From Theionarchaea archaeon (GTDB lineage: Archaea > Methanobacteriota_B > Thermococci > Methanofastidiosales > SZ-28-30): a stretch of 20,000 nt of DNA. Below, in pieces: positions 1-20,000 of the stretch. The position numbers and the translations under genes are program-made. Numbering within the stretch: the first letter of the stretch is position 1; each line of letters opens with the position of its first letter. Under the pieces are notes generated by a model. It saw only the letters and a list, made by a program, of their open reading frames with translations. It searched no databases and was not told the origin of the DNA. The stretch lies in NCBI GenBank assembly GCA_018992565.1, contig JACVGW010000002.1, forward strand, positions 60,841 through 80,840, in the 5' to 3' direction.

Positions 1-696
1 ATCTTCCAAGAAGAGTCCTGAATACTGTGCAAGAGACTTCTGATCATACACCCTCGTACTGGCATTCCCCCTGATGCAGACTGCTTTCAGCTTTTTTGAT
101 CCCATGACAGCACCCAGCCCGCTCCTGGCAGCAAGTCGTCCCTTGTCGGTAACAACACCTGCTATCAGTGAGAGTGTTTCCCCTGCGGGTCCAATGCAGG
201 CAGTCTCGAACTCTTTTCCGTGTTTTTTCCGGAGATAATCATCAGTGAAGGTTGTATCTTTACCCCAGATTTCAGATGCATCTATCAGTTCTTTCTTACC
301 ATCATCAATGAGCAAGTACACAGGCGAAGGGCTCACACCGGTGAAGAAAAAGCCATCATACCCTGTTTTCTTGATTGCGGGAGCAAAGTAACCGCCGCAG
401 TTGGCATCACCCCACGTCCCTGTCAGCGGGCTTTTTCCAGCAACCATCCAGCGTCCATTCATGAGGGCACCCGTACCTGTGAGCAAGCCGCTCATCACAC
501 AGAAGATGTTCTCCGGTCCCAGTGGATCTGCCCCTGGTTTCTGGCGATCAAAAAGGATCTTGGCGGCCAACCCGTATCCTGAAAGAAATTTCTCGTAGTA
601 CTCGTCTGGAATGACTTCTTCTGTGATAGCTCCCGTCTCAAGATTGACCCACAGAATCTTACCCATGTACCCGAATTTTTGAGGTTCATTTCCCAT
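1..696 (-). CDS. aor: Aldehyde:ferredoxin oxidoreductase (tungsten AOR family), N-terminal part; runs off the window's left edge
   Basis: Not in the ORF track; translated by hand. ATG at 696 gives MGNEPQKFGYMGKILWVNLETG...DPLGPEN...KSPLTGTWGDANCGGYFAPAIKKTGYDG...GRLAARSGLGAVMGSKKLKAV, all AOR N-domain motifs. RBS GGAGGTGAA at 701-709 on the minus strand. Confidence 0.95.
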   Translation of the reverse strand, partial: MGNEPQKFGYMGKILWVNLETGAITEEVIPDEYYEKFLSGYGLAAKILFDRQKPGADPLGPENIFCVMSGLLTGTGALMNGRWMVAGKSPLTGTWGDANCGGYFAPAIKKTGYDGFFFTGVSPSPVYLLIDDGKKELIDASEIWGKDTTFTDDYLRKKHGKEFETACIGPAGETLSLIAGVVTDKGRLAARSGLGAVMGSKKLKAVCIRGNASTRVYDQKSLAQYSGLFLED

Positions 697-9559: not shown

Positions 9560-10522
9560 ATGAGAGCAACTCCTGATGAAAAAGTGATGCAGTATAGAAT
9601 CATCTACGAAAAATTCACTGAGTGCCCCAGAGCAAAGGTTCGGGACGTGGCATCTCTCCTGAGAGTCAACCGTCATTGTGCCAGTATCAAGATAAAGGAA
9701 GCTCTCAACCTCGGCTATGTTCTCGTACCGCAGTTGAGAAAACGTTCGTATTCCAACATGAGGGAGTACATGTACTTTGTGAATTGTGTACATCCCTTCG
9801 ATTTCTACAAGAAGTACAGCAAGGATCTCAATGTGGTTTATCATGCGCGAATGGTGGGGTTTGCCAGTATGTGGATAGTCTCCAGCAGGAGAATACATGT
9901 TGAAGGAAAGACGGTGATAGAAGGAGTCCGCTCTGACTACTACGTGGCACATGCTCCCAGCCATTCCTGGCAGAAAGCAGTTGATATCATGTGGAAGAAA
10001 GTGCGGGAGTTTGATCCTGACAGGCATTCGTCCAGGAAGTTCATTGTCAACCACCTGACTGAGTCTATGCATTGGGATAGTCAGGATGAGATACTGTACC
10101 AGGAATTCAAATACGATCTGAGGAGAAACCTCAGCCCCATTATGAAAAAGTATGGTATTTCCGCCCGGAAGATTTATTCGTTCTTTGAGAAGATGCGTCG
10201 CTGCTGTACTGTATTTACGCGATTCTTCCCGGAGACTATTGTCTCTTACGATCCTTATCTGTTCATATTCGAGACTGAGTATGAGGACTTCGTCATTGAC
10301 CTGTTCTCTGAACTGCCCACCAGCCCCTTTTTCTTCAAGGTTGGGGATAGACTGCTCATGTACACGAATGTGGACAAATTCTTCTCACGACGAGTGGGAC
10401 TCGACATGTCGGATGTCAGTCAGCTCCACATTCCTCTCTTGGTGGATGCGCTGATAAAAAAAGGGATAGTGAAAAGAGAAGATCATGCTATTGCTGAGTA
10501 TTCAAATGCAAAGGGGTTTTAG
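9560..10522 (+). CDS. Hypothetical protein with two Lrp/AsnC-like HTH modules; putative transcriptional regulator
   Basis: 320-aa ORF with RBS AAGGAGG just upstream. Segment IIYEKFTECPRAKVRDVASLLRVNRHCASIKIKEALNLGYV and segment WDSQDEILYQEFKYDLRRNLSPIMKKYGISARKIYSFFEKM both align by eye with the Lrp N-terminus at 3315. Confidence 0.7.
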   Translation: MRATPDEKVMQYRIIYEKFTECPRAKVRDVASLLRVNRHCASIKIKEALNLGYVLVPQLRKRSYSNMREYMYFVNCVHPFDFYKKYSKDLNVVYHARMVGFASMWIVSSRRIHVEGKTVIEGVRSDYYVAHAPSHSWQKAVDIMWKKVREFDPDRHSSRKFIVNHLTESMHWDSQDEILYQEFKYDLRRNLSPIMKKYGISARKIYSFFEKMRRCCTVFTRFFPETIVSYDPYLFIFETEYEDFVIDLFSELPTSPFFFKVGDRLLMYTNVDKFFSRRVGLDMSDVSQLHIPLLVDALIKKGIVKREDHAIAEYSNAKGF

Positions 10523-10722
10523 CCTGGAGCCCCTCCTCCCCCACCCTGATGACCTCCATTGATTGTAGGGTTTCCATTCTGGGAGGCGTCTGGATTGATT
10601 GAGCAGTACTCATCTGGAAACTCTGTTTGATCTGTAACCTGGACGTATACCTCTCCTATTGCAGAAGAGGTTCCCACCAACAGGAGTCCAGCAACCAACA
10701 AGAACATTACTATAGGTTTCAT
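10519..10722 (-). CDS. Small exported peptide (67 aa) with N-terminal signal peptide and Gly-rich C-terminus
   Basis: Internal ATG 10722 of the 126-aa track ORF, preceded by RBS AGAGGTGA (10727-10734) and TTTTTATT (~10757-10764). Sequence MKPIVMFLLVAGLLLVGTSSA/IGEVYVQVTDQTEFPDEYCSINPDASQNGNPTINGGHQGGGGGAPG. Confidence 0.8.
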   Translation of the reverse strand: MKPIVMFLLVAGLLLVGTSSAIGEVYVQVTDQTEFPDEYCSINPDASQNGNPTINGGHQGGGGGAPG

Positions 10723-10940
10723 TCTCTCACCTCTTATGGGCGTATAATCCATTCTCAATAAAAAGATTTCGCTATACGGAAAGAATGGCATGCTGGAATG
10801 TTCCATAACGTGACCTGGGCCCTGTTCAAGACATGAGTGGTCTCCAGTGAAGAGGAGGGTTCTCGTAGTTGTGATACTTCCTGTGCAGGGGTCTACCAAC
10901 CTGTATCAATCTTTAAATATGTCAATGCTTCATTATTCCC

Positions 10941-12191
10941 ATGAGTAAAACCATGGCTGAGAAAATATTGGGAAGAGCAAGTAACCAGGAGGTTGCTTCA
11001 GGTGACATCATAGATGGTACAGTTGATCTGGCCATGTCTCATGAGAATACTGCTGCAATCTCTGGTAAGTTCAAGTCTATCGGTGTTCCCAGGGTGTGGG
11101 ATCCCGCACGGATTGTGGTCCCCATTGATCATTGCGCCCCTGCAGCAAATGAGGATTATGCCAAGAATCACAAGGTTATTAGGGAATTTGTCAGAGAACA
11201 GAACATCACAAACTTCTATGATATAAAAGCGGGAGTGTGCCATCAGGTTCTCCCTGAAAAGGGACACATTAAGCCGGGCATGTTGGTGGTGGGCTCAGAT
11301 TCTCATACACCCACCTATGGGGCATTGGCTGCATTTGCCACAGGAATCGGGAGGACAGAGATGGCTGCTGTCTATGCTACAGGAAAGATTTGGTTGAGAG
11401 TCCCTGAAAGCTTTAAGATAATCGTGGAAGGAAAGCTTCCTGATATGGTGTCAGCAAAGGATGTGATTCTTCACATTATTGGGGATCTGCGAGCCGATGG
11501 GGCGAATTACAAAGCCGTGGAATTCTGCGGGGATACGGTAGATCACATGACTGTGGGTGAGCGAATGGTCCTATGCAACATGTCTGCTGAGATGGGCGCC
11601 AAGGCGGGAATGGTTGCCTTTGATGATACTACCAGGATGTATCTGGACGAGAGAACAGACAGAGTGTATACTGTGCTGAATCCAGATGCAGATGCAGTCT
11701 ATGAGAAGGTTGTCCATGTTGCTGTCCATGATCTGGAGCCTCAGGTGGCCTGTCCCCATACGGTGGACAATGTCAAGCCTCTTTCCCAGGTGGAGGGAGT
11801 TCCCATCAACCAGGCGGTCCTGGGCACCTGTACCAATGGCAGAGTGGAGGATCTGGCTGTGGCAGCATCCCTTCTCAAGGGAAAGAAGATTGCTGACACG
11901 GTGCGGTTAATTGTCATCCCGGCTTCCACAGAAGTCTATGCAGAAGCAGTACAGAATGGGATAATTCTGGATTTAGTGAAAGCAGGTGCAGTCATCTGCA
12001 ACCCCAATTGTGGTCCCTGTCTGGGTGCTCACCAGGGTGCCCTGGCTCCTGGGGAAGTATGTATCTCCTCATCCAACCGCAACTTCAGAGGGAGGATGGG
12101 CTGTAAGGATGCTGAAATCTATCTTGCTTCTCCCGCGACTGTGGCAGCTTCATCTCTAACTGGCAGAATTACTGATCCCCGAGGTGTATAA
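10941..12191 (+). CDS. leuC: 3-isopropylmalate dehydratase/homoaconitase large subunit (LeuC/HacA family)
   Basis: MSKTMAEKIL, DH, CHQV, DSHT, [4Fe-4S] cysteines in GTCTNGR and CGPCLG, SNRNF.GRMG, YLASP. Confidence 0.95.
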   Translation: MSKTMAEKILGRASNQEVASGDIIDGTVDLAMSHENTAAISGKFKSIGVPRVWDPARIVVPIDHCAPAANEDYAKNHKVIREFVREQNITNFYDIKAGVCHQVLPEKGHIKPGMLVVGSDSHTPTYGALAAFATGIGRTEMAAVYATGKIWLRVPESFKIIVEGKLPDMVSAKDVILHIIGDLRADGANYKAVEFCGDTVDHMTVGERMVLCNMSAEMGAKAGMVAFDDTTRMYLDERTDRVYTVLNPDADAVYEKVVHVAVHDLEPQVACPHTVDNVKPLSQVEGVPINQAVLGTCTNGRVEDLAVAASLLKGKKIADTVRLIVIPASTEVYAEAVQNGIILDLVKAGAVICNPNCGPCLGAHQGALAPGEVCISSSNRNFRGRMGCKDAEIYLASPATVAASSLTGRITDPRGV

Positions 12192-12692
12192 ATGAAAATG
12201 AAAGGCAGAGTGTTCAAGTATGGAGATGACGTTAATACTGATGTCATTTTTCCTGGAAAGTACACGTACACGATATCAGATCCCAAAGAAATGGCAAAGC
12301 ATGCTCTGGAGGATTTGGATCCCGCATTTATTCAGAAGGTGAAAAAGGGAGATATCCTGGTGGCGGGGAAGTATTTTGGGTGCGGCTCCTCGCGTGAACA
12401 GGCAGTGACCTGTTTGAAGGAGGCTGGCATCTCAGTGGTCATCGCAGAATCATTTGCTCGTATCTACTACCGGAACTGCATCAATTCAGGTCTGCCCCCC
12501 TTGATACTGGAAGATACCTCTCACATCAATGCAGAAGACGAACTAGAGGTGGATGTAGAAACAGGAACTGTCACAGATGTGACTACAGGAGCGCAATACA
12601 CTGTCACTCCCCTGCCCCCCTTTATCATGCAGATCATACAGGATGGCGGTCTAATTCCGCACCTCAAGAAGGAGATCTCTCATGGACGTTGA
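12192..12692 (+). CDS. leuD: 3-isopropylmalate dehydratase/homoaconitase small subunit (LeuD/HacB family)
   Basis: GDDVNTDVIFPGKY, FGCGSSREQA, SFARIYYRNCIN.G, GGL; directly abuts the large subunit. Confidence 0.93.
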   Translation: MKMKGRVFKYGDDVNTDVIFPGKYTYTISDPKEMAKHALEDLDPAFIQKVKKGDILVAGKYFGCGSSREQAVTCLKEAGISVVIAESFARIYYRNCINSGLPPLILEDTSHINAEDELEVDVETGTVTDVTTGAQYTVTPLPPFIMQIIQDGGLIPHLKKEISHGR

Positions 12693-13165
12693 AGGGTTCT
12701 ATGACGAGAGGGCTCCCTTTTACGATGGGGAGTACAGGACTCCCTTTTTTGATTTGTACAGGGCTCTTACGTGGGACAATATCAGCNNNNNNNNNNNNNN
12801 NNNNNNNNNNNNNNNNNNNNNNNNNNNNNNNNNNNNNNNNNNNNNNNNNNNNNNNNNNNNNNNNNNNNNNNNNNNNNNNNNNNNNNTTATTTGAGACAGA
12901 ACGCGCCACATTTCAGACAGGGTTTGAAATTCGCTACTTCACTCCTGGGTCCTTGAGGCAGCTTTTTGAAGGTGCAGGATTTGAGGTGGTGCGCATCCTG
13001 GGAAAGCCTGTCTTCCTTTCCAGGGTCCCCCGGGAACGAGCGCATGATTTGCTGCGAGATAAAAAGGTGTTTGACAGAATACTTGAACTGGAACTGCAGT
13101 TCTGTGATAATCCAAATTTGATTGGCTTTGCGGGGCACCTGGAAATTGCAGGTAAAAAAGTGTAA
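12682..13165 (+). CDS. Probable class I SAM-dependent methyltransferase, middle lost in the assembly gap
   Basis: N-terminus MDVEGFYDERAPFYDGEY (FYD...YD, typical of class I MTases), with RBS AAGGAG and an 11-nt overlap with the small subunit. C-terminus RYFTPGSLRQLFEGAGFEVVRILG...GHLEIAGKKV. The SAM-binding motif would fall in the gap. Confidence 0.6.
12787..12886. other. Assembly gap (100 N)
   Basis: Run of exactly 100 N, a placeholder of unknown true length. Confidence 0.99.
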
Positions 13166-13174
13166 GAGTGAGGA

Positions 13175-13531
13175 CTATTTTTGCTTGTAGCGTTCCTTCT
13201 GATTGAAGAATGTAATGTCTTTGAAGCCTCTCCTGATTCTTGCCCTGTGTGGAACACCCCTGGGGATGTAGTACGTGTCTCCTCTCCTGAAGACGTGGCT
13301 CTCACCGTTAATTATAAGTTCAATTTCGCCATCCAGGACAACTCCCCACTGGGGCTCGTGAGCATGTTCGGGAACCTCAACATCTTCAGAAAATTCCATG
13401 AAAATGATTTGATTTGCTTCACCTTGAAACAGATATGAACGAAGACCTGTAAGGGGAATATCAGCTTCCGGCAGCGATGTAACCATGCTGGGAAAGAATT
13501 CTTTCTTGCTGTCAGTTGGGACATTTTTCAT
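13175..13531 (-). CDS. Cupin domain protein (cupin_2)
   Basis: Cupin motif 1 VPEHAHEPQWGVVLDGEIEL and motif 2 GDTYYIPRGVPH. Confidence 0.9.
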   Translation of the reverse strand: MKNVPTDSKKEFFPSMVTSLPEADIPLTGLRSYLFQGEANQIIFMEFSEDVEVPEHAHEPQWGVVLDGEIELIINGESHVFRRGDTYYIPRGVPHRARIRRGFKDITFFNQKERYKQK

Positions 13532-13645
13532 GGGGGGATATTTTTGATGGTCTTAAAAAAGGTTCGGTACAGCATGCGCAGTGAACCAAAAACCATTTAA
13601 GTCTTGAGATATAAATAGAATTAACTGGCGGGAAGCAGGTGGATT

Positions 13646-13777
13646 ATGGCTGAAGTCAAAGAAACTGAGCCCCCTGACACAGCTGCAGGATGGCTGTCTC
13701 AGGACGGATACAGGAATGCATGGCTCAACCAGATCATAGAGGAGTTGAAGCTGGAGTGCTACGAGGGATTGCTGTGA
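13646..13777 (+). CDS. Small hypothetical protein (43 aa), below the ORF-track cutoff
   Basis: MAEVKETEPPDTAAGWLSQDGYRNAWLNQIIEELKLECYEGLL*. RBS AGGTGG at 13638-13642 region and TATAAATA near 13610-13617. Its TGA overlaps the GTG start of the next gene (GTGA). Confidence 0.6.
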   Translation: MAEVKETEPPDTAAGWLSQDGYRNAWLNQIIEELKLECYEGLL

Positions 13778-14298
13778 GAGTTGCTCAGTGGGAGATTCTG
13801 GGAGTTTTGTTCATTATTGTGGTGGGTTCATTTCTGCATTTCCTCTTTGAGCTGTCAGGATTCATGCCTGTGGCAGGATTGATTGGAGCTGTCAATGAGA
13901 GTGTATGGGAACATCTGAAGATTGGATTCTGGCCTGCAGTATTTTTCGCACTGATCGAATATCATTTTCTGAAGTCCAGTGCGAATTTCTGGGTGGCAAA
14001 GGCAGCATGTGCATATGTAATACCCGTGACTATAGCTGTACTATTCTATGGTTATACAGGCATTCTGGGCTACAATACGCTGGCTCTTGATATTACTGTT
14101 TTTGTCGTAGCCGTCATCGTGGGTCAAATCGCCAGTTACAGATTGCTGACCTGCAGAGATCTTCCTGTGTTATGGCAATGGGTTGGCCCTGCTGCACTAC
14201 TGGTGCTGGCTGTGCTGTTCATGGTGTTCACGTTTTATCCACCGCATGTCGGGCTGTTCAGGGATCCAGTGACAGGTGGGTATGGCATTGTGAGTTGA
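13774..14298 (+). CDS. DUF6512-like integral membrane protein
   Basis: About 5 TM helices; motifs GSFLHFLFE, VNESVWEHLK and FT.YPP...LF.DP recalled as typical of this family. Start reassigned to GTG 13774. Confidence 0.7.
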   Translation: MRVAQWEILGVLFIIVVGSFLHFLFELSGFMPVAGLIGAVNESVWEHLKIGFWPAVFFALIEYHFLKSSANFWVAKAACAYVIPVTIAVLFYGYTGILGYNTLALDITVFVVAVIVGQIASYRLLTCRDLPVLWQWVGPAALLVLAVLFMVFTFYPPHVGLFRDPVTGGYGIVS

Positions 14299-14327
14299 GT
14301 ACATTCTGTCCAACAGATTGTTGCCAT

Positions 14328-16142
14328 CTACAAAGAGAAAAGGTGGAGGGTTCCGCTGGAATCCAGCACCAGGAGGTACTCTTCTGAGTGAGTAGCTGCA
14401 AGTGAGACTTCATCAGGGAAGATATCCAGCTCACGTTGTGCAACAATATACCATTGTAGAATACCAGTTTCTGCACTTAGGCAGTGGATATACCCATCGT
14501 TTGCTAAAACATAAATATTCTCGTTATATTGATAGAAAGAGGTAATTTCAGTCCCTCTCACTTCATGAACCCACAGCTCTGCACCTGTTTCTGCATCGAG
14601 GGCCTGGATTACTCCGCCTTCTCTGACGAGGAACACTTTTTTCTCAGTGAGGATTGTCCTGGAGATGGGTGTATTTTCAGAGTTGTACTCCCACTTTTTC
14701 AGGCCATTTATGTGTAACATGACTACAGACTGATATTCTGAATCAGTGTGCATCATCAGCGCGATATTGTCTCCAAGAATATTTATGGAGTCCACAGGGT
14801 ACTGAGGCCAGAAAAGGTCAGTTTCTGTCATAGTCTCCAGCGTAATGCTGGTGAGTGTCCCCTCCTCATCAAAGAAATAGAAGACACCTTCAGAGTATGT
14901 GGGATGCTGGATTGAAGGGAGAGGGCCACTCCACAACGGTTCTCCTGTGCCTATATCGAGGATGACATAGTGAGGTGCAGACTGTTGATCTAGCTCAGCA
15001 AAAAGTACCGCATCGTCATATATGGCCTCATTCCAGGTATCATTGGACACTTCCCAGAGCACATTGCCGTGTTCTCTTTCCAGGCAGACAATCCCTCCAG
15101 TGAGGGCTATTACCGTATTGTCAATAAGACTCACTGCAATGTAGTCAGTGACAGATGGTATCTTATACGTCCAACGTATGCTCCCTGTTTCAGTGTCTAT
15201 GCTGTAGATATGGGAATCAGGAGCCCCCACATACAGGGTGTCATCAGAGACTGCAATCTTTTGCTCCAGCGAGGAGGGATAAGAGTGCTGTACAATCTCA
15301 AAAGGAATTGTGTACAACTGGGTTCTTGACTGAGCATCAATGCATACAATCTTGTCAGCATATGGAAGGAATATCTTTTGGTTGTGATAAACGGGGCTGC
15401 ACATAGGAACCTCCGGGAGGGCTAACGACAACAGAAGATGGGTCTGGCCCAGGACTTCCTCTGGGGGACAAATATCAGTAGTTGAGGGAAAATCAAGACT
15501 GATTCCCTTTTCCTGGGCGGCTGGAGGAACATGAGCAGGATAACATCCCCAGGTTGCTATTTTCTGGTAGGATTCCCATTGGTTATCAAGTTTTATGAGA
15601 ATTTTGAACAGTGCACTGGGGATCTTCCCGCTGTACTGGACGTAATTAGAGCCTTCATACGTGATATTCCAGGGAATGAAGCAGTAATAGCTTGATTCGG
15701 ATTCTGCCTGTATAGTTTTCCCATTGGAAAGTGTTATTTCAATGGTGAAGTGAGGGCTGTAGTCGAGGCGTGTGTAGCCCCTATAGGTTGTCTGGTAACT
15801 AACCTGGTAGAGGTCTGTAAAGCTTTCTGCAACCTCTCCTATCAGTTCTGGGGTTACGTGTTCTCCAGTGCTGGCAAAGTACTCACTATTGATTCTCTGG
15901 ATCCTGTAGAAGTGGTAGGCCAGGATAGAATCTGCGGTCTCGCTGTTGGGATCTGTATTACGTGAGCCATTGAAGGCCGTTACAGCAGTATAGGTAATGT
16001 CAATAGTTGTTATGGACTGAACAGGGGAGTATATTTCAGGAGCGTCAAAATCGGGGGGAATGTGCCACTGGACAGTCATGATGCCAGCTACAACAGCTAC
16101 CATCAGTAATAGAGAAATACTCTTTTGAAGAGGAGATGTCAC
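14328..16142 (-). CDS. Membrane-anchored/exported PQQ-like (BamB-type) beta-propeller repeat protein
   Basis: N-terminal hydrophobic segment. Repeated propeller motifs IYSIDTETGSIRW, LEREHGNVLW, LDIGTGEPLW, ALDAETGAELW and LSAETGILQW. Acidic composition. Confidence 0.85.
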   Translation of the reverse strand: MTSPLQKSISLLLMVAVVAGIMTVQWHIPPDFDAPEIYSPVQSITTIDITYTAVTAFNGSRNTDPNSETADSILAYHFYRIQRINSEYFASTGEHVTPELIGEVAESFTDLYQVSYQTTYRGYTRLDYSPHFTIEITLSNGKTIQAESESSYYCFIPWNITYEGSNYVQYSGKIPSALFKILIKLDNQWESYQKIATWGCYPAHVPPAAQEKGISLDFPSTTDICPPEEVLGQTHLLLSLALPEVPMCSPVYHNQKIFLPYADKIVCIDAQSRTQLYTIPFEIVQHSYPSSLEQKIAVSDDTLYVGAPDSHIYSIDTETGSIRWTYKIPSVTDYIAVSLIDNTVIALTGGIVCLEREHGNVLWEVSNDTWNEAIYDDAVLFAELDQQSAPHYVILDIGTGEPLWSGPLPSIQHPTYSEGVFYFFDEEGTLTSITLETMTETDLFWPQYPVDSINILGDNIALMMHTDSEYQSVVMLHINGLKKWEYNSENTPISRTILTEKKVFLVREGGVIQALDAETGAELWVHEVRGTEITSFYQYNENIYVLANDGYIHCLSAETGILQWYIVAQRELDIFPDEVSLAATHSEEYLLVLDSSGTLHLFSL

Positions 16143-16425
16143 AGGTGACTCTAGGAATACCCCTTTTTAAGAATTCCTACACTGGGAGTTGCATTGAAGA
16201 GATCCAGCAGGAATCATGCAGCGTCATGGCAATTCTCCTATGCATCATTTCATATCCAACTGCGATCTCTCTGCTTCTTCATCTTTCTCAAGGTACTTGA
16301 GAGTTGTAGTCCCATCGAGAATCACTCTCATATAAAGCTCAGAAGTCTTGAGCAGCGCAATATTGGCAGTTACTGCATATCCAATTTCCTTCATAAGGCG
16401 ATGTCCTATATACATGGCCCCTCTC

Positions 16426-16507: not shown

Positions 16508-17875
16508 TCAGGGTCGACATGACTTTTGTCTGAAGTGTTCCCATATAGCCAGAACCAGCAACGCCACGAGGAGCGCAACAATCAGCAGACCTCGAAATGG
16601 GATGGACGAACTGGTGTACTCATTCTCTGCCTGGTTCATTACCTCGATATACTCATCAAGGTTAGTGCACAGAACAGCTTTTTTCTGAGCTGCAAGGGCG
16701 CGAGGGGTTTCTTTTCCTGTTGTTATGTCTTCCAGATAGTGATTCCAAACTTGCTGGGTGAGAGCGAAGGCTTCTTCCATGTGGTCTATGTTGTCAAACT
16801 CACACACTGGTCCTCCTCCGTGATCGCAATCCCACTGCGGATCAATCAATCCATGCCCGGATATTTCGGGGCCACTGAGACTTTCGGGCACACTCATCCA
16901 GGGGACACCGCGCCCTGACCAGAAGGATTTGTCAAATGACTCATTTTCATCCTCAGGAGATACCACGGCTGCCACTACATAGTCATATGGCCTGTCGGAG
17001 ACACCTTCACTGCTGAGTGTTACCCATCCGTGGCCTGACACGTAGAACTGAACTATGTAGTGAGTCTGCAAGACAGGGGCCAATGTTGGATAGACTGCCA
17101 AAATACGTGCAGGTATACCATTCGTACGGAATAATGCGGCTCCAAGGTTAGCATAGCTGGTACAGTACCCTCCTTCATGCAGAGCTTCTACTGCGTCAGT
17201 ACTCTGAGGATCACCAAATTCAATTTTGTTGAGGAATTCTGCTATTCCATTGCAAATTCTCACGACATCGTTTCCACTCCCTCGCAGTCTCTTGGCGGTT
17301 TCCTGGATTTCGGGGTGATCCGCCTGAACAGAAGCTGTAGATTCGAGCCATACCATGACATCCTGGGGTAAATCCTCACTTGCAGCAACTTCAATTTTCT
17401 CAGATAGTATGTCCCCATAGTCACGATCTCTCATCAGAACGAATCCATCCCACTTCACATCCACAGCGTCACCCTTGTTCAAGTGGTGAAAGGTCACCTC
17501 ACAGATCCAGTTGAATTCATCTCTTTTCCTGGTAACCACAGTTTTTACAGCATCTTCTGGATCAAACCGAAGTTCAAAGTAGAGGGGAACCTGATTCTCA
17601 AATTCCAGAGGGATAGGAAATGCTATTTGTGGCTCTTCCACATCTTCTTCGGCCACGATTCGAAGCCGGAACACTGCATAGGCAATACCCGGGTCAAGCA
17701 TGCGCTGAATAGGCGCAGGGAATGACTTCTCAGTTCCATAGTCTGGAAGTTCTACTTCCTCATCAGGGATAGTGTCTTTGACGACACTTTCGTATACCAT
17801 TGACGCGCCTGTAACCACGACCATCACTATCAACAAAAGGTATGCTTTTCTTGTTTTTGATATCATGCTTTTCAT
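16508..17875 (-). CDS. Transglutaminase-like domain protein with N-terminal signal/TM and C-terminal TM anchor
   Basis: Motifs VQADHPEI, DAVEAL..GGYCTSYANLGAALFRTNGIPAR and THYIVQFYV.G.GWV. Hydrophobic segments at both ends and a basic C-tail. Confidence 0.85.
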   Translation of the reverse strand: MKSMISKTRKAYLLLIVMVVVTGASMVYESVVKDTIPDEEVELPDYGTEKSFPAPIQRMLDPGIAYAVFRLRIVAEEDVEEPQIAFPIPLEFENQVPLYFELRFDPEDAVKTVVTRKRDEFNWICEVTFHHLNKGDAVDVKWDGFVLMRDRDYGDILSEKIEVAASEDLPQDVMVWLESTASVQADHPEIQETAKRLRGSGNDVVRICNGIAEFLNKIEFGDPQSTDAVEALHEGGYCTSYANLGAALFRTNGIPARILAVYPTLAPVLQTHYIVQFYVSGHGWVTLSSEGVSDRPYDYVVAAVVSPEDENESFDKSFWSGRGVPWMSVPESLSGPEISGHGLIDPQWDCDHGGGPVCEFDNIDHMEEAFALTQQVWNHYLEDITTGKETPRALAAQKKAVLCTNLDEYIEVMNQAENEYTSSSIPFRGLLIVALLVALLVLAIWEHFRQKSCRP

Positions 17876-18120
17876 ACTATCATCTTCTCCTATACCATTC
17901 TATCGTAGGTAGTATCTACTTATGCAGTAGTATGTAAGCTCTTCTTCATAAATGTTCTTTTGTTCTAATGTGCAATTTTCTTTTCGGAGAAAAGAGAGAT
18001 GTGGGGAATCTGATTTTCATCCATCATGTATCGTCAGGCTGGTAGAAGATGCAGCAAGAGAGTGCCCATAACGCGGGATAAATATAGGGATTCCCGCATT
18101 TCCATGAATTGACCTTTATA

Positions 18121-18135
18121 GAAACCCTTTTATAC
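18121..18135 (+). promoter_or_regulatory. Archaeal BRE/TATA promoter of the radical SAM gene
   Basis: GAAACCCTTTTATAC: purine-rich BRE followed by TTTTATA, about 35 nt upstream of ATG 18168. Confidence 0.5.
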
Positions 18136-18167
18136 TCCTTGTAAGAATTCCAGAAAGAGCTGTTGAT

Positions 18168-19994
18168 ATGGACAGAAAAATACATTTTCCAGTCAATAAA
18201 GACTATATTCTGGAATTTGACAGTAATAATAGAAAAATAGACTTGTTGGAGTGGCAAGAGTTCGAAAATGTGAGACTTATCAACAGTGAGGAAGAAGAAG
18301 TTGCTGAAATCCCTTTTGCAAGATCAGACGATATCAGTGTGGTTGTAATACCCTCTCATTTCTGTAACCTCTCGTGCAAATATTGCCATGATGGAACCAT
18401 GACATCTAGCATTCAGAAGCTGGAGAAGAATATGATTGATTCCATTTTTGATTTCCTAGAACAATTTGAAGAAAATAAGGTGGTAAAATGGACGCTCATG
18501 GGGGGAGAACCATTTCATCATGTAGTGGAGGAATCAGTACTCTGCCTGATGGAAAGAATAAAAGAAAGAGGGGAGCCAATTCACGCTATTTGTAATGGAA
18601 CATTGCTGAATGAAGTGTATGCGAACTATCTGGATTCTGTTCAGATAGCGCTGGATGGAACAAGAGAATTCCATGACTATAGACGATTGTATCCTGATGG
18701 GAAAGGATCATTTCAGGATACTGTCAATGGTATAGAGACCGCACTAGCCTGTGATACCAGTGTCAGTGTGAGAGTACATGTAGATGCCCATAACATTAAT
18801 AACGTGCCAGAGCTCCTACATTACCTGTCGTCGAAAGGATATTTATCCAAAAAGCATTTTGAAGTGTATATGTACCCCCTGAGCGAATCAGGAAGTTTTG
18901 ATTATCAGTATTTTACTGATGAGCTCTCTCTGGTGAAAAGGGCAGTGTATTTAATGAGAGAATACCCACATCTGAGAAAAACAAAATGGAGGTTTCAAGG
19001 AATAGAGTTGTTCGAGAATATACGTGAGGGGAAGGAATTTCCCACAGCAGATTTTCATTTCTGCTGTGCACATTCAAATCAAATCGTTTTTGATCCCCAG
19101 GGCGATGTGTATGTTTGCTGGGTTGGCCTGGAAAAGGAACACTTCAAGATCGGCAAGTATTGCCCTGAAAAAAGACTATATAAGGGTTTATTCAAAAGAT
19201 GGCGGGACAGGAACATGATAAATCTTGAGGAGTGTTGTTCTTGTTATTTCCAGCCTGTTTGCGGAGGAGACTGTTCTCACAAAGCATACAAAGAAACGAA
19301 GAAATCTGGAGATCCAAGATGTGTACCTGTCTTGGAGATACTAGAAGAATGGGTACCGCTCCTTCTTGATAACTTCGAAATGGTGGAAAGAACCTCTTTT
19401 GAGAGGTGGGATTTTGAGAAATGGGCAGATAATTATGATGCTTCTGTCAAATCAAAAGGCTGGCTACATTCAGATTACGAAAAAATTCTAAGAGAAGTCT
19501 CCAACAGAGCTACTGGATCATTCTTGGTGGATATTGGTGCTGGAACAGGTAACATCCTCCAATACTTGAGGGAAGGAATACGATATGTGGGGATAGAACC
19601 TTCCCCCAATATGAGAAGAGTCTTCAGAGAAAAACACAGAGACAAAGAAGTATATTCTGGACATTTCCTCTATGTACCACTCATGAGTAGAATTGCAGAC
19701 ACTGTTCTCAGCTCATATGCCTTTCATCACGTCAGGGATGAGGATAAAGAAAGGTCAATAGAGGAAATGCTTCGATTGCTCAAGAATGGTGGGAAGCTGG
19801 TTATAGGAGACATAATGTTTCAATCCGAAGACGAGAAAGCCAGAATTGGAGAAGAAGACAATATTCTGGAAGATGTAAATGATGAATATTTCGCGTCTAT
19901 AGATCACATGAAGAACATTCTGGATACGCTGCAGATGAAGTCAGTATTTACACAGATAAATCGGTACATATGGATCATGGAGGTCTTTACTTGA
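18168..19994 (+). CDS. Radical SAM/SPASM domain protein fused to a C-terminal class I SAM-dependent methyltransferase
   Basis: CNLSCKYC (CxxxCxxC), GGEP, QIALDG..E.HD.RR. SPASM cysteines CC...GDVYVC...C-CS-C-YFQPV-C-GGD-C...C. From about nt 19400 an MTase domain: FEKWADNYD, VDIGAGTG, GIEPS..M, SSYAFHH, LK.GGKLVIGD. Confidence 0.93.
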   Translation: MDRKIHFPVNKDYILEFDSNNRKIDLLEWQEFENVRLINSEEEEVAEIPFARSDDISVVVIPSHFCNLSCKYCHDGTMTSSIQKLEKNMIDSIFDFLEQFEENKVVKWTLMGGEPFHHVVEESVLCLMERIKERGEPIHAICNGTLLNEVYANYLDSVQIALDGTREFHDYRRLYPDGKGSFQDTVNGIETALACDTSVSVRVHVDAHNINNVPELLHYLSSKGYLSKKHFEVYMYPLSESGSFDYQYFTDELSLVKRAVYLMREYPHLRKTKWRFQGIELFENIREGKEFPTADFHFCCAHSNQIVFDPQGDVYVCWVGLEKEHFKIGKYCPEKRLYKGLFKRWRDRNMINLEECCSCYFQPVCGGDCSHKAYKETKKSGDPRCVPVLEILEEWVPLLLDNFEMVERTSFERWDFEKWADNYDASVKSKGWLHSDYEKILREVSNRATGSFLVDIGAGTGNILQYLREGIRYVGIEPSPNMRRVFREKHRDKEVYSGHFLYVPLMSRIADTVLSSYAFHHVRDEDKERSIEEMLRLLKNGGKLVIGDIMFQSEDEKARIGEEDNILEDVNDEYFASIDHMKNILDTLQMKSVFTQINRYIWIMEVFT

Positions 19995-20000
19995 GTGATA

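Follow-up and report, generated by a model that had tools for sequence, protein, structure and literature searches.

A radical SAM/SPASM enzyme fused to a YrrT-like methyltransferase in a theionarchaeon, a possible two-activity peptide maturase

Introduction

Can a single archaeal polypeptide use S-adenosylmethionine (SAM) in two ways, as the source of a radical and as a methyl donor, on one and the same substrate? The question is raised by a gene at positions 18168..19994 of a 20,000-nucleotide stretch of DNA from a Theionarchaea archaeon (assembly GCA_018992565.1, contig JACVGW010000002.1, positions 60,841 to 80,840), hereafter called the window, in which a radical SAM/SPASM enzyme is continued in frame by a class I methyltransferase. 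An initial annotation, made from the sequence alone, had described the product as a candidate two-activity maturase of peptides that are made by ribosomes and modified after translation (RiPPs). The analysis presented here leads to a tentative answer, to which we give a probability of roughly 45%: one polypeptide with two SAM-using active sites may crosslink and methylate one peptide or protein. In the following, the fusion protein of the window (608 amino acids) is called P0001, a 612-residue relative is called P0002, and the source genome is G000; the end of the window is the end of its contig C102. The evidence supports the view that the organism is an archaeon and a class-level relative of Thermococcus, which agrees with the archaeal host assumed in the initial annotation.

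Architecture of the fusion gene

The reading frame on the forward strand begins at 18168, which is its first start codon and the position to which the start of P0002 aligns, and it contains no internal stops. Its parts are as follows:

18168..19994 (+), the whole fusion gene (protein P0001), 608 codons and a stop
18168..18266 (+), N-terminal mini-domain, residues 1-33, three beta-strands followed by a helix at residues 29-38 in the AlphaFold2 model
18267..18332 (+), linker 1, residues 34-55, with a predicted local confidence (pLDDT) of 57-68 after the helix and 5% identity to P0002
18333..18857 (+), radical SAM core, residues 56-230, with PF04055, PF13353 and the Cx3Cx2C motif
19053..19367 (+), SPASM domain, residues 296-400, with seven cysteines kept in P0002 and a fold match to CteB and to the anaerobic sulfatase maturase (anSME)
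19368..19406 (+), linker 2 between the SPASM and methyltransferase domains, residues 401-413, with a pLDDT of 60-64 and 8% identity to P0002
19407..19991 (+), class I SAM methyltransferase domain, YrrT-like, residues 414-608, with Pfam Methyltransf_11/25/12 and a match to PDB entry 3hnr

The AlphaFold2 model of the whole chain, computed from a 58-row alignment, has a mean pLDDT of 90 and a predicted template modelling score (pTM) of 0.85, and this level of confidence fits a defined packing of the two halves. Comparison with P0002 gives identities of 48% for the N-terminal domain, 43% for the radical SAM core, 56% for the SPASM domain and 57% for the methyltransferase domain, against the 5% and 8% listed above for the linkers. 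By these values, both halves are under constraint in two lineages while the linkers drift. The initial annotation had read a complete radical SAM core, a full set of SPASM cysteines with flanking ones, and an in-frame methyltransferase with an intact DIGAGTG motif and no stop before it. All three readings hold: the first through C66/C70/C73 and a PF04055 match above its cut-off, the second through the seven conserved cysteines and the CteB and anSME folds (with the Pfam model PF13186 silent), and the third through the 608-codon frame, whose residues 414-608 contain a Methyltransf_11 match above its cut-off.

Integrity of the fusion

A gene of this kind at the end of a contig could be the product of a chimeric assembly, or a frameshifted gene pair read as one. 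The contig does end at window position 20000, 6 bases after the stop codon, and the GC content of the gene is atypical for the genome. Against this stands first of all P0002, which is 50% identical to P0001 over 99% coverage and has the same architecture in 612 residues; it is found on two contigs and its near-copy P0164 (also 612 residues) on three, of which the longest measures 39,914 bases, and P0001 itself on six public contigs, the longest of which has 283,403 bases. In addition, a sequencing run without a flag as possible source of the window DNA (X19) yields a contig of 3971 bases that covers positions 17800-19608 with 5 substitutions and 0 gaps. This contig crosses the domain junction and shows linker 2 without indel or stop (as evidence from contigs, not raw reads), and by codon reading its substitutions introduce no stop but give F244P, P387S and V388I. 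In each of 19 public runs from 7 studies, half or more of the window words sampled are present, although 18 of these 19 are flagged as possible sources of the window DNA, and the two halves of the gene are of equal GC content. No contig from runs X1 and X16 aligned on the window, which may be a filter effect, and the metatranscriptome run X20 contributed one contig of 246 bases on 18052-18297, too little to claim transcription.

Because of the 50%-identical relative with the same architecture and the independent contig across the junction, the fusion is confirmed as real and not an assembly artefact. The reading of the gene as an artefact or a dead gene is close to refuted and can be regarded as highly improbable, and the continuity between the domains assumed in the initial annotation, without stop or frameshift, is upheld at the level of contigs.

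The radical SAM/SPASM half

The Pfam model Radical_SAM (PF04055) matches residues 60-218 with 50.5 bits (gathering cut-off 29.5), and Fer4_12 (PF13353) matches with 37.9 bits (cut-off 22). The three cysteines of the Cx3Cx2C motif (C66/C70/C73, nucleotides 18363-18386) are invariant in P0002, and the motif lies in a partial TIM barrel whose fold matches CteB and anSME, as in the radical SAM superfamily, where it binds the [4Fe-4S] cluster that cleaves SAM. The seven SPASM cysteines shared with P0002 (C299, C317, C356, C359, C365, C369 and C385) are spaced as C299-x12-G312-x4-C317, then C356-x2-C359-x5-C365-x3-C369, then C385, which corresponds to the subfamily pattern Cx9-15Gx4C ... Cx2Cx5Cx3C ... 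C, and the structure aligns with CteB and anSME through residue 403.

The only PDB sequence match of this half is CteB (E 3.4e-16), the thioether-forming maturase of SCIFF/thermocellin (PDB 5wgg and 5why), and the same enzyme is the best structural match of the model (5wgg, Foldseek E 4e-19; VIA Z 28.1, rmsd 3.9 over 377 aligned residues, model 1-403). CteB shares with the fusion the three-cluster layout and the seven-cysteine SPASM domain, while it differs in having a full N-terminal RiPP recognition element (RRE) and no methyltransferase; the identity is about 20%, and the fusion scores 62.8 bits on the SCIFF model TIGR03974, for which the cut-off is 425. The next structural matches are anSME (4k38, Z 26.1) and ChlB (Z 26.0). 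The similarity to anSME is that of the shared SPASM scaffold, and the score on the anaerobic sulfatase maturase model TIGR03942 is 65.7 bits, short of the curated cut-off of 349.45.

The best NCBIfam match is TIGR04463 'rSAM_vs_C_rich' (128.6 bits, E 2.7e-37, curated cut-off 525), followed by CefB (NF038107; 126 bits, E 1.6e-36, curated cut-off 600), PapB (NF047865; 103.1 bits, E 1.7e-29, curated cut-off 340) and DynA (100.4 bits, E 1e-28). The first two models describe maturases of cysteine-rich peptides, from which the fusion differs in that its match starts at about position 80 of the profile, the leader-binding part being missing, and in that no cysteine-rich precursor was seen. When the eight nearest free-standing relatives of the radical half were scanned, the best match was CefB or TIGR04463 for seven of them; the remaining one, P0041, had no NCBIfam match at E<=1e-30. 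These comparisons support the assignment of the radical half to the kind of enzyme that matures peptides or proteins, its nearest relatives being the cysteine-peptide maturases CteB, CefB, TIGR04463 and PapB.

The N-terminal mini-domain consists, in the AlphaFold2 model, of strands at residues 4-8, 13-18 and 23-28 and a helix at 29-38, followed by a low-confidence linker. The Cx3Cx2C motif is preceded by about 85-100 residues in most of the 44 relatives aligned, compared with about 65 in P0001 and P0002. In the alignment with CteB (model 1..403 to chain 1..450) the domain falls on the N-terminal end of that enzyme, and the 48% identity of the domain to P0002 contrasts with the 5% of the adjoining linker. 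In the model it looks like a truncated RRE-like domain, and the shortened element is probably still functional. An archaeal enzyme that bears on this point is CrpC of Methanococcus voltae, a SPASM enzyme reported to introduce ranthionine crosslinks into a protein (PMC13692751). Likened by that published description, the fusion has the same spacing as the three-cysteine auxiliary cluster I (AuxI) and the four-cysteine auxiliary cluster II (AuxII) of CrpC, which differs in its predicted RRE of 92 residues, in its adjacent substrate gene and in having no fused methyltransferase. Residual processing by CrpC without its RRE is reported in the same source, and a reduced RRE therefore need not abolish activity.

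Other proteins related to this radical SAM/SPASM lineage carry C-terminal additions of their own, namely PqqD/RRE (P0051), Peptidase_S24 (P0058) and DUF5714 (P0093), and the C-terminus of the lineage is thus a recurrent fusion point. PqqD and peptidases are the sort of helper that is used in peptide maturation.

The methyltransferase half

Pfam Methyltransf_11 matches residues 454-546 with 62.7 bits (cut-off 21.2), several class I methyltransferase models covering residues 439-565 exceed their gathering scores, and motif I, DIGAGTGN, occupies residues 455-462 (nucleotides 19530-19553). The domain has the Rossmann fold and GxGxG motif of class I SAM-dependent methyltransferases and matches 3hnr and many other methyltransferases at Z 19-23; an NCBIfam scan of the domain returned no model at its cut-off. 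The best PDB match is 3hnr, 'probable methyltransferase BT9727_4108' (E 7.4e-29, residues 10-200 of 202; Z 23.4, rmsd 2.0, 33% identity), which we take to be a member of the YrrT family and an ortholog of YrrT, the family name itself being our assumption as well. The fused domain shows full-length similarity to this family (3hnr; yrrT of B. subtilis and B. cereus) and has both its N-terminal W-x-F-x2-W-A-x2-Y-D helix and its C-terminal N-R-Y-x-W strand. The difference is that the YrrT-like methyltransferases are stand-alone enzymes of about 200 residues, while the domain studied here is the C-terminus of a radical SAM enzyme. In Bacillus, the job of the family is thought to be the conversion of SAM to S-adenosylhomocysteine (SAH) for the conversion of methionine to cysteine. 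The gene yrrT is described as coding for a putative AdoMet-dependent methyltransferase in a yrrT-mtnN-mccA-mccB operon for methionine-to-cysteine conversion (PMC2566862; PMC3519770).

The same family is also fused to other partners: to MerR DNA-binding domains in P0003, P0009 and P0173-P0175 (341-388 residues), and to a PALP/cysteine-synthase domain in P0004-P0008 (524 residues). A search targeted at the methyltransferase domain gave eight matches, made up of two radical SAM, three MerR and three PALP fusions, and the ESM Atlas holds many MerR fusion clusters of this family. The PALP/cysteine-synthase fusion agrees with the part that yrrT is reported to have in methionine-to-cysteine conversion, and the MerR fusion hints at a SAM-sensing regulator.

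Such partners lead to an explanation in which the methyltransferase does not act on the substrate of the radical half at all: it could serve as a sensor, binding SAM/SAH and thereby tuning the radical half, or be tethered to it while doing the family's own job. The MerR and PALP fusions, the Atlas clusters and the place of yrrT in its operon all speak for this explanation, as does the finding that every family motif is unchanged in the fusion. On the other hand, a fusion that is stable at 57% identity in two lineages usually means that the two parts work together on a single substrate, the window is devoid of mtnN and mccAB genes, and the placement of 3hnr as a YrrT ortholog is an assumption. 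A sensor or a tethered bystander therefore appears unlikely to us.

An ArsM-type As(III) methyltransferase was considered and rejected: residues 407-608 contain 0 cysteines, so there are no As(III)-binding cysteines and the domain is not ArsM-like, and the ArsM models reach 18-29 bits, compared with cut-offs of 240-575.

Distribution and origin of the gene

When 5.8 billion proteins were searched by word index, 12 of 7658 candidates matched at E<=0.001, and among those 12 only P0001 and P0002 have both domain types. An exhaustive HMMER comparison with 1.84 billion representatives returned 15,255 matches at E<=0.001; the best 150 of these comprise one protein with both domains (P0001), two with the methyltransferase only (P0013 and P0158) and 147 with radical SAM only, and none is a bacterial two-domain fusion. 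Bacterial clusters combining Radical_SAM and Methyltransf_11 do exist in the ESM Atlas (559-679 residues, 58-94 members, scores 0.89-0.92, to be taken as leads only). They are alike in general architecture, and differ in their bacterial hosts and in belonging to other methyltransferase subfamilies (ArsM, UbiE and PCMT types). The architecture type as such is thus not unique; what is new is the YrrT-like partner together with the archaeal host and the minimal N-terminal domain, a combination found in only two lineages among the billions of proteins searched. A literature search found no description of a radical SAM/SPASM enzyme fused to a class I methyltransferase.

Closer to the source genome, a full-length match to the fusion was found in 0 of the 132 other genomes of the phylum searched, and a search of genome and metagenome contigs with P0001 found no fusion locus. 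The corresponding search with the P0001/P0002 alignment returned only distant radical SAM proteins at 22-34% identity (among 80 loci retained from 396 relatives in genome contigs, and 3 metagenome loci).

The GC content of the gene is 40.0% (40.1 and 39.9 for the two halves), compared with 46.6 +/- 2.1% for 1.8-kb windows of the genome, which places it among the lowest 0.45%. Apart from the fusion, 41 radical SAM/SPASM paralogues are found in the genome at E<1e-8; their GC contents are 41.4-50.2%, and many form tandem clusters (for example C13:34-50 kb, C30:25-33 kb, C29, C62 and C128). Part of this expansion is also present in G001, a genome of the same genus. A quick maximum-likelihood tree was built from 76 rows, consisting of the fusion pair, the 28 best of the 41 own paralogues and 46 foreign proteins (those of at least 400 residues from P0014-P0061, with P0019 and P0045 left out as short). 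In this tree the fusion pair (SH-aLRT 100) lies within a clade (99) of foreign proteins only, apart from all 28 own paralogues included.

Neither the fusion gene nor its transglutaminase-like neighbour was found in the close relatives G001-G003. Collinearity of G001 contig C27 with the window spans 10900-16221 (75-83%) and is lost shortly after the PQQ-propeller gene, and the G001 genes beyond that point have no collinear continuation in the source genome. The foreign GC content of the fusion gene, its absence from three close relatives and its position in the tree apart from the paralogues of its own genome make it look recently imported, as a unit that was fused beforehand, into a variable region. 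At the matching place G001 has a different open reading frame (ORF) of 347 residues that resembles the radical SAM paralogues of the source genome. The transglutaminase-like gene (16508-17875, reverse strand) and the fusion gene are specific to the source genome among the genomes searched.

Proposed function and what weighs against it

The reading that we prefer is the following. The N-terminal two thirds of the protein would act in the manner of CteB, CefB and CrpC, as a radical SAM/SPASM enzyme with three clusters in which reductive cleavage of SAM would give a 5'-deoxyadenosyl radical that abstracts hydrogen from the substrate. A cysteine sulfur would then be joined to carbon, most likely as a thioether crosslink, and in the three-cysteine auxiliary cluster I an iron would be left free to receive the thiol of the substrate. 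The C-terminal third, a YrrT-type Rossmann methyltransferase, would take a methyl group from another SAM molecule and transfer it to that substrate or to the product. At the N-terminus, the small conserved beta-sheet may be what is left of a leader-binding domain, and it probably still has a part in keeping the substrate in place; the gene itself may have arrived in the genome already fused, by horizontal transfer. The architecture, the intactness of the cofactor and SAM motifs, the conservation in a second lineage, the relationships of both halves and the foreign composition of the gene are shown directly by the data; in this scheme we infer the substrate class, the crosslink chemistry, the methylation of the same molecule and the order of the steps.

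The scheme is favoured because the frame is uninterrupted and holds all catalytic motifs, because the radical half is kin to cysteine-peptide maturases and has the CrpC-like spacing of seven cysteines, and because both halves are constrained in two lineages while the linkers drift. The peptide-maturation type of the additions in related proteins, the confidence of the whole-chain model, the richness of the genome in radical SAM/SPASM systems and the foreign origin of the gene as one unit point in the same direction.

Several observations weigh against it. Concerning the radical half, the Pfam SPASM model PF13186 has no match on the fusion protein at E<=0.1, so that it is the cysteine pattern and the structural similarity to CteB and anSME that identify the domain as SPASM. 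Scores on all named maturase families fall far short (128.6 bits against 525 in the best case), and the N-terminal domain, whose roughly 38 residues form three strands and a single helix, is not a full RRE of three strands and three helices. Concerning the surroundings, the 292-bp gap upstream holds ORFs of 20-39 residues only, none of them cysteine-patterned and none a convincing precursor, and the genes that precede the fusion in the window are housekeeping genes without relation to it. No precursor, partner or substrate gene is thus visible, the contig ending 6 bases past the stop.

Further objections come from the methyltransferase. An alignment of 25 rows shows that no motif of the free-standing proteins has been lost in the fused domains, and the domain of P0001 is as close to 12 free-standing Thermococcaceae-type proteins (48-56% identity) as it is to P0002 (54%). 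Across 133 genomes of the phylum, proteins of about 200 residues that consist of the methyltransferase alone (47-57% identity) occur in 24 of the 97 genomes of family f5, which is of Thermococcaceae type and includes Thermococcus, and in 0 of 35 further genomes that lie outside f5, 33 of them from the window's own order. One of these proteins, that of L105, has the sequence of P0013, a 200-residue protein of Thermococcus sp. LS1. The neighbours of the free-standing genes code for MFS transporters, GNAT acetyltransferases and a CAAX protease, and a radical SAM neighbour was found at 0 of the 3 loci examined. A relative of the radical half (E<=1e-20) is present in 16 f5 genomes, which include only one (G120) of the 24 that bear the methyltransferase; the usual acceptor of the methyltransferase family therefore cannot be the product of the fusion enzyme. 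By descent, then, the fused domain seems not to be a dedicated tailoring enzyme but an ortholog-level member of a family that the Thermococcaceae have free-standing and without a radical SAM partner. Moreover, the nearest solved folds besides 3hnr belong to small-molecule methyltransferases (SgMT, PE N-methyltransferase, CmoA, ToxA and TylM1).

The last point leads to a further alternative, namely that the radical half transforms a metabolite or cofactor precursor, which the methyltransferase then methylates, in parallel to fusions of radical SAM and ArsM-type enzymes for organo-arsenic compounds. It would account for the truncated recognition domain, for a methyltransferase family that is otherwise free-standing next to transporters and acetyltransferases, and for those nearest folds; SPASM/twitch enzymes acting on small molecules also match the model at lower rank (BlsE, 7vob, Z 19.3), and ArsS-like and UbiE-like radical SAM-methyltransferase clusters are found in the ESM Atlas. 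Yet, in sequence as in fold, every one of the radical half's top relatives modifies peptides or proteins, the N-terminal beta-sheet is aligned to the RRE end of CteB and far better conserved (48%) than the linker (5%), and the methyltransferase domain, being without cysteine, cannot be an ArsM-type binder of As(III). We consider a small-molecule substrate improbable for these reasons.

A self-substrate, with the core peptide fused to its enzyme, was also considered; OphMA is an example of such an arrangement. It was rejected on the grounds that the protein ends in the final strand of the methyltransferase, which is conserved, and that the linkers are unconserved and without cysteine.

Returning to the crosslinking and methylating enzyme that we prefer, the description of the gene as a two-activity RiPP maturase survives in part: the architecture is conserved in a second lineage and the radical half is of the maturase kind, but the RRE is truncated, no named family is reached, the methyltransferase comes from a free-standing family and no precursor was seen upstream.

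Genomic context

The fusion gene is preceded by the following region:

17876..18167 (no strand), divergent intergenic region with TATA-like boxes, from reading of the sequence and a small-ORF scan

The upstream genes lie on the opposite strand, which fits the earlier proposal that the fusion is the first gene of its unit. The promoter of its own that had been proposed with it is plausible only: TATA-like boxes are seen by eye at about 18115-18121 and about 18129-18136, while a scan for sigma-70 (bacterial-type) promoters gave no excess over shuffled sequences (5 found, 6.6 expected). At the other end, the assembly has no sequence past position 20000 on this contig, and the last 21-127 bases of C102 overlap with no other contig.

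Further upstream, the window codes for an Fpg glycosylase, an aminotransferase, an M20 peptidase, an SDR protein, an aconitase-type pair, a cupin, a DUF6512 protein, a PQQ-like propeller and a transglutaminase-like membrane protein. No tRNA was found in the window, and no meaningful repeats around the fusion gene. An ORF of 158 residues at 12689-13165 (+), directly after the small subunit of the aconitase-type pair, has no Pfam match and, at 37.5%, the lowest GC content of the window's genes. Two more ORFs, at 9560-10522 (+, 320 residues) and 10519-10899 (-, 126 residues), belong to no Pfam family.

Implications

As it stands, the gene represents a well-supported architecture with a putative function. 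The varied C-terminal additions on this lineage of radical enzymes (RRE, peptidase, DUF5714 and methyltransferase) are useful for genome mining. A bolder and rather speculative idea, which we think has little chance of being right, is that the fusion is a Rosetta stone: the YrrT-like family would methylate sulfur or carboxyl groups on peptides or proteins, and the archaeal enzyme, as one polypeptide with a minimal leader-binding domain, would make a radical-crosslinked, methylated peptide of a kind undescribed from archaea. To our knowledge, the archaeal group of the source organism has no characterised natural product so far. If both halves do share one substrate, the gene would provide this group with a compact path to a peptide that one protein both crosslinks and methylates, and it would give a first functional hint for the widespread family of YrrT-like methyltransferases.

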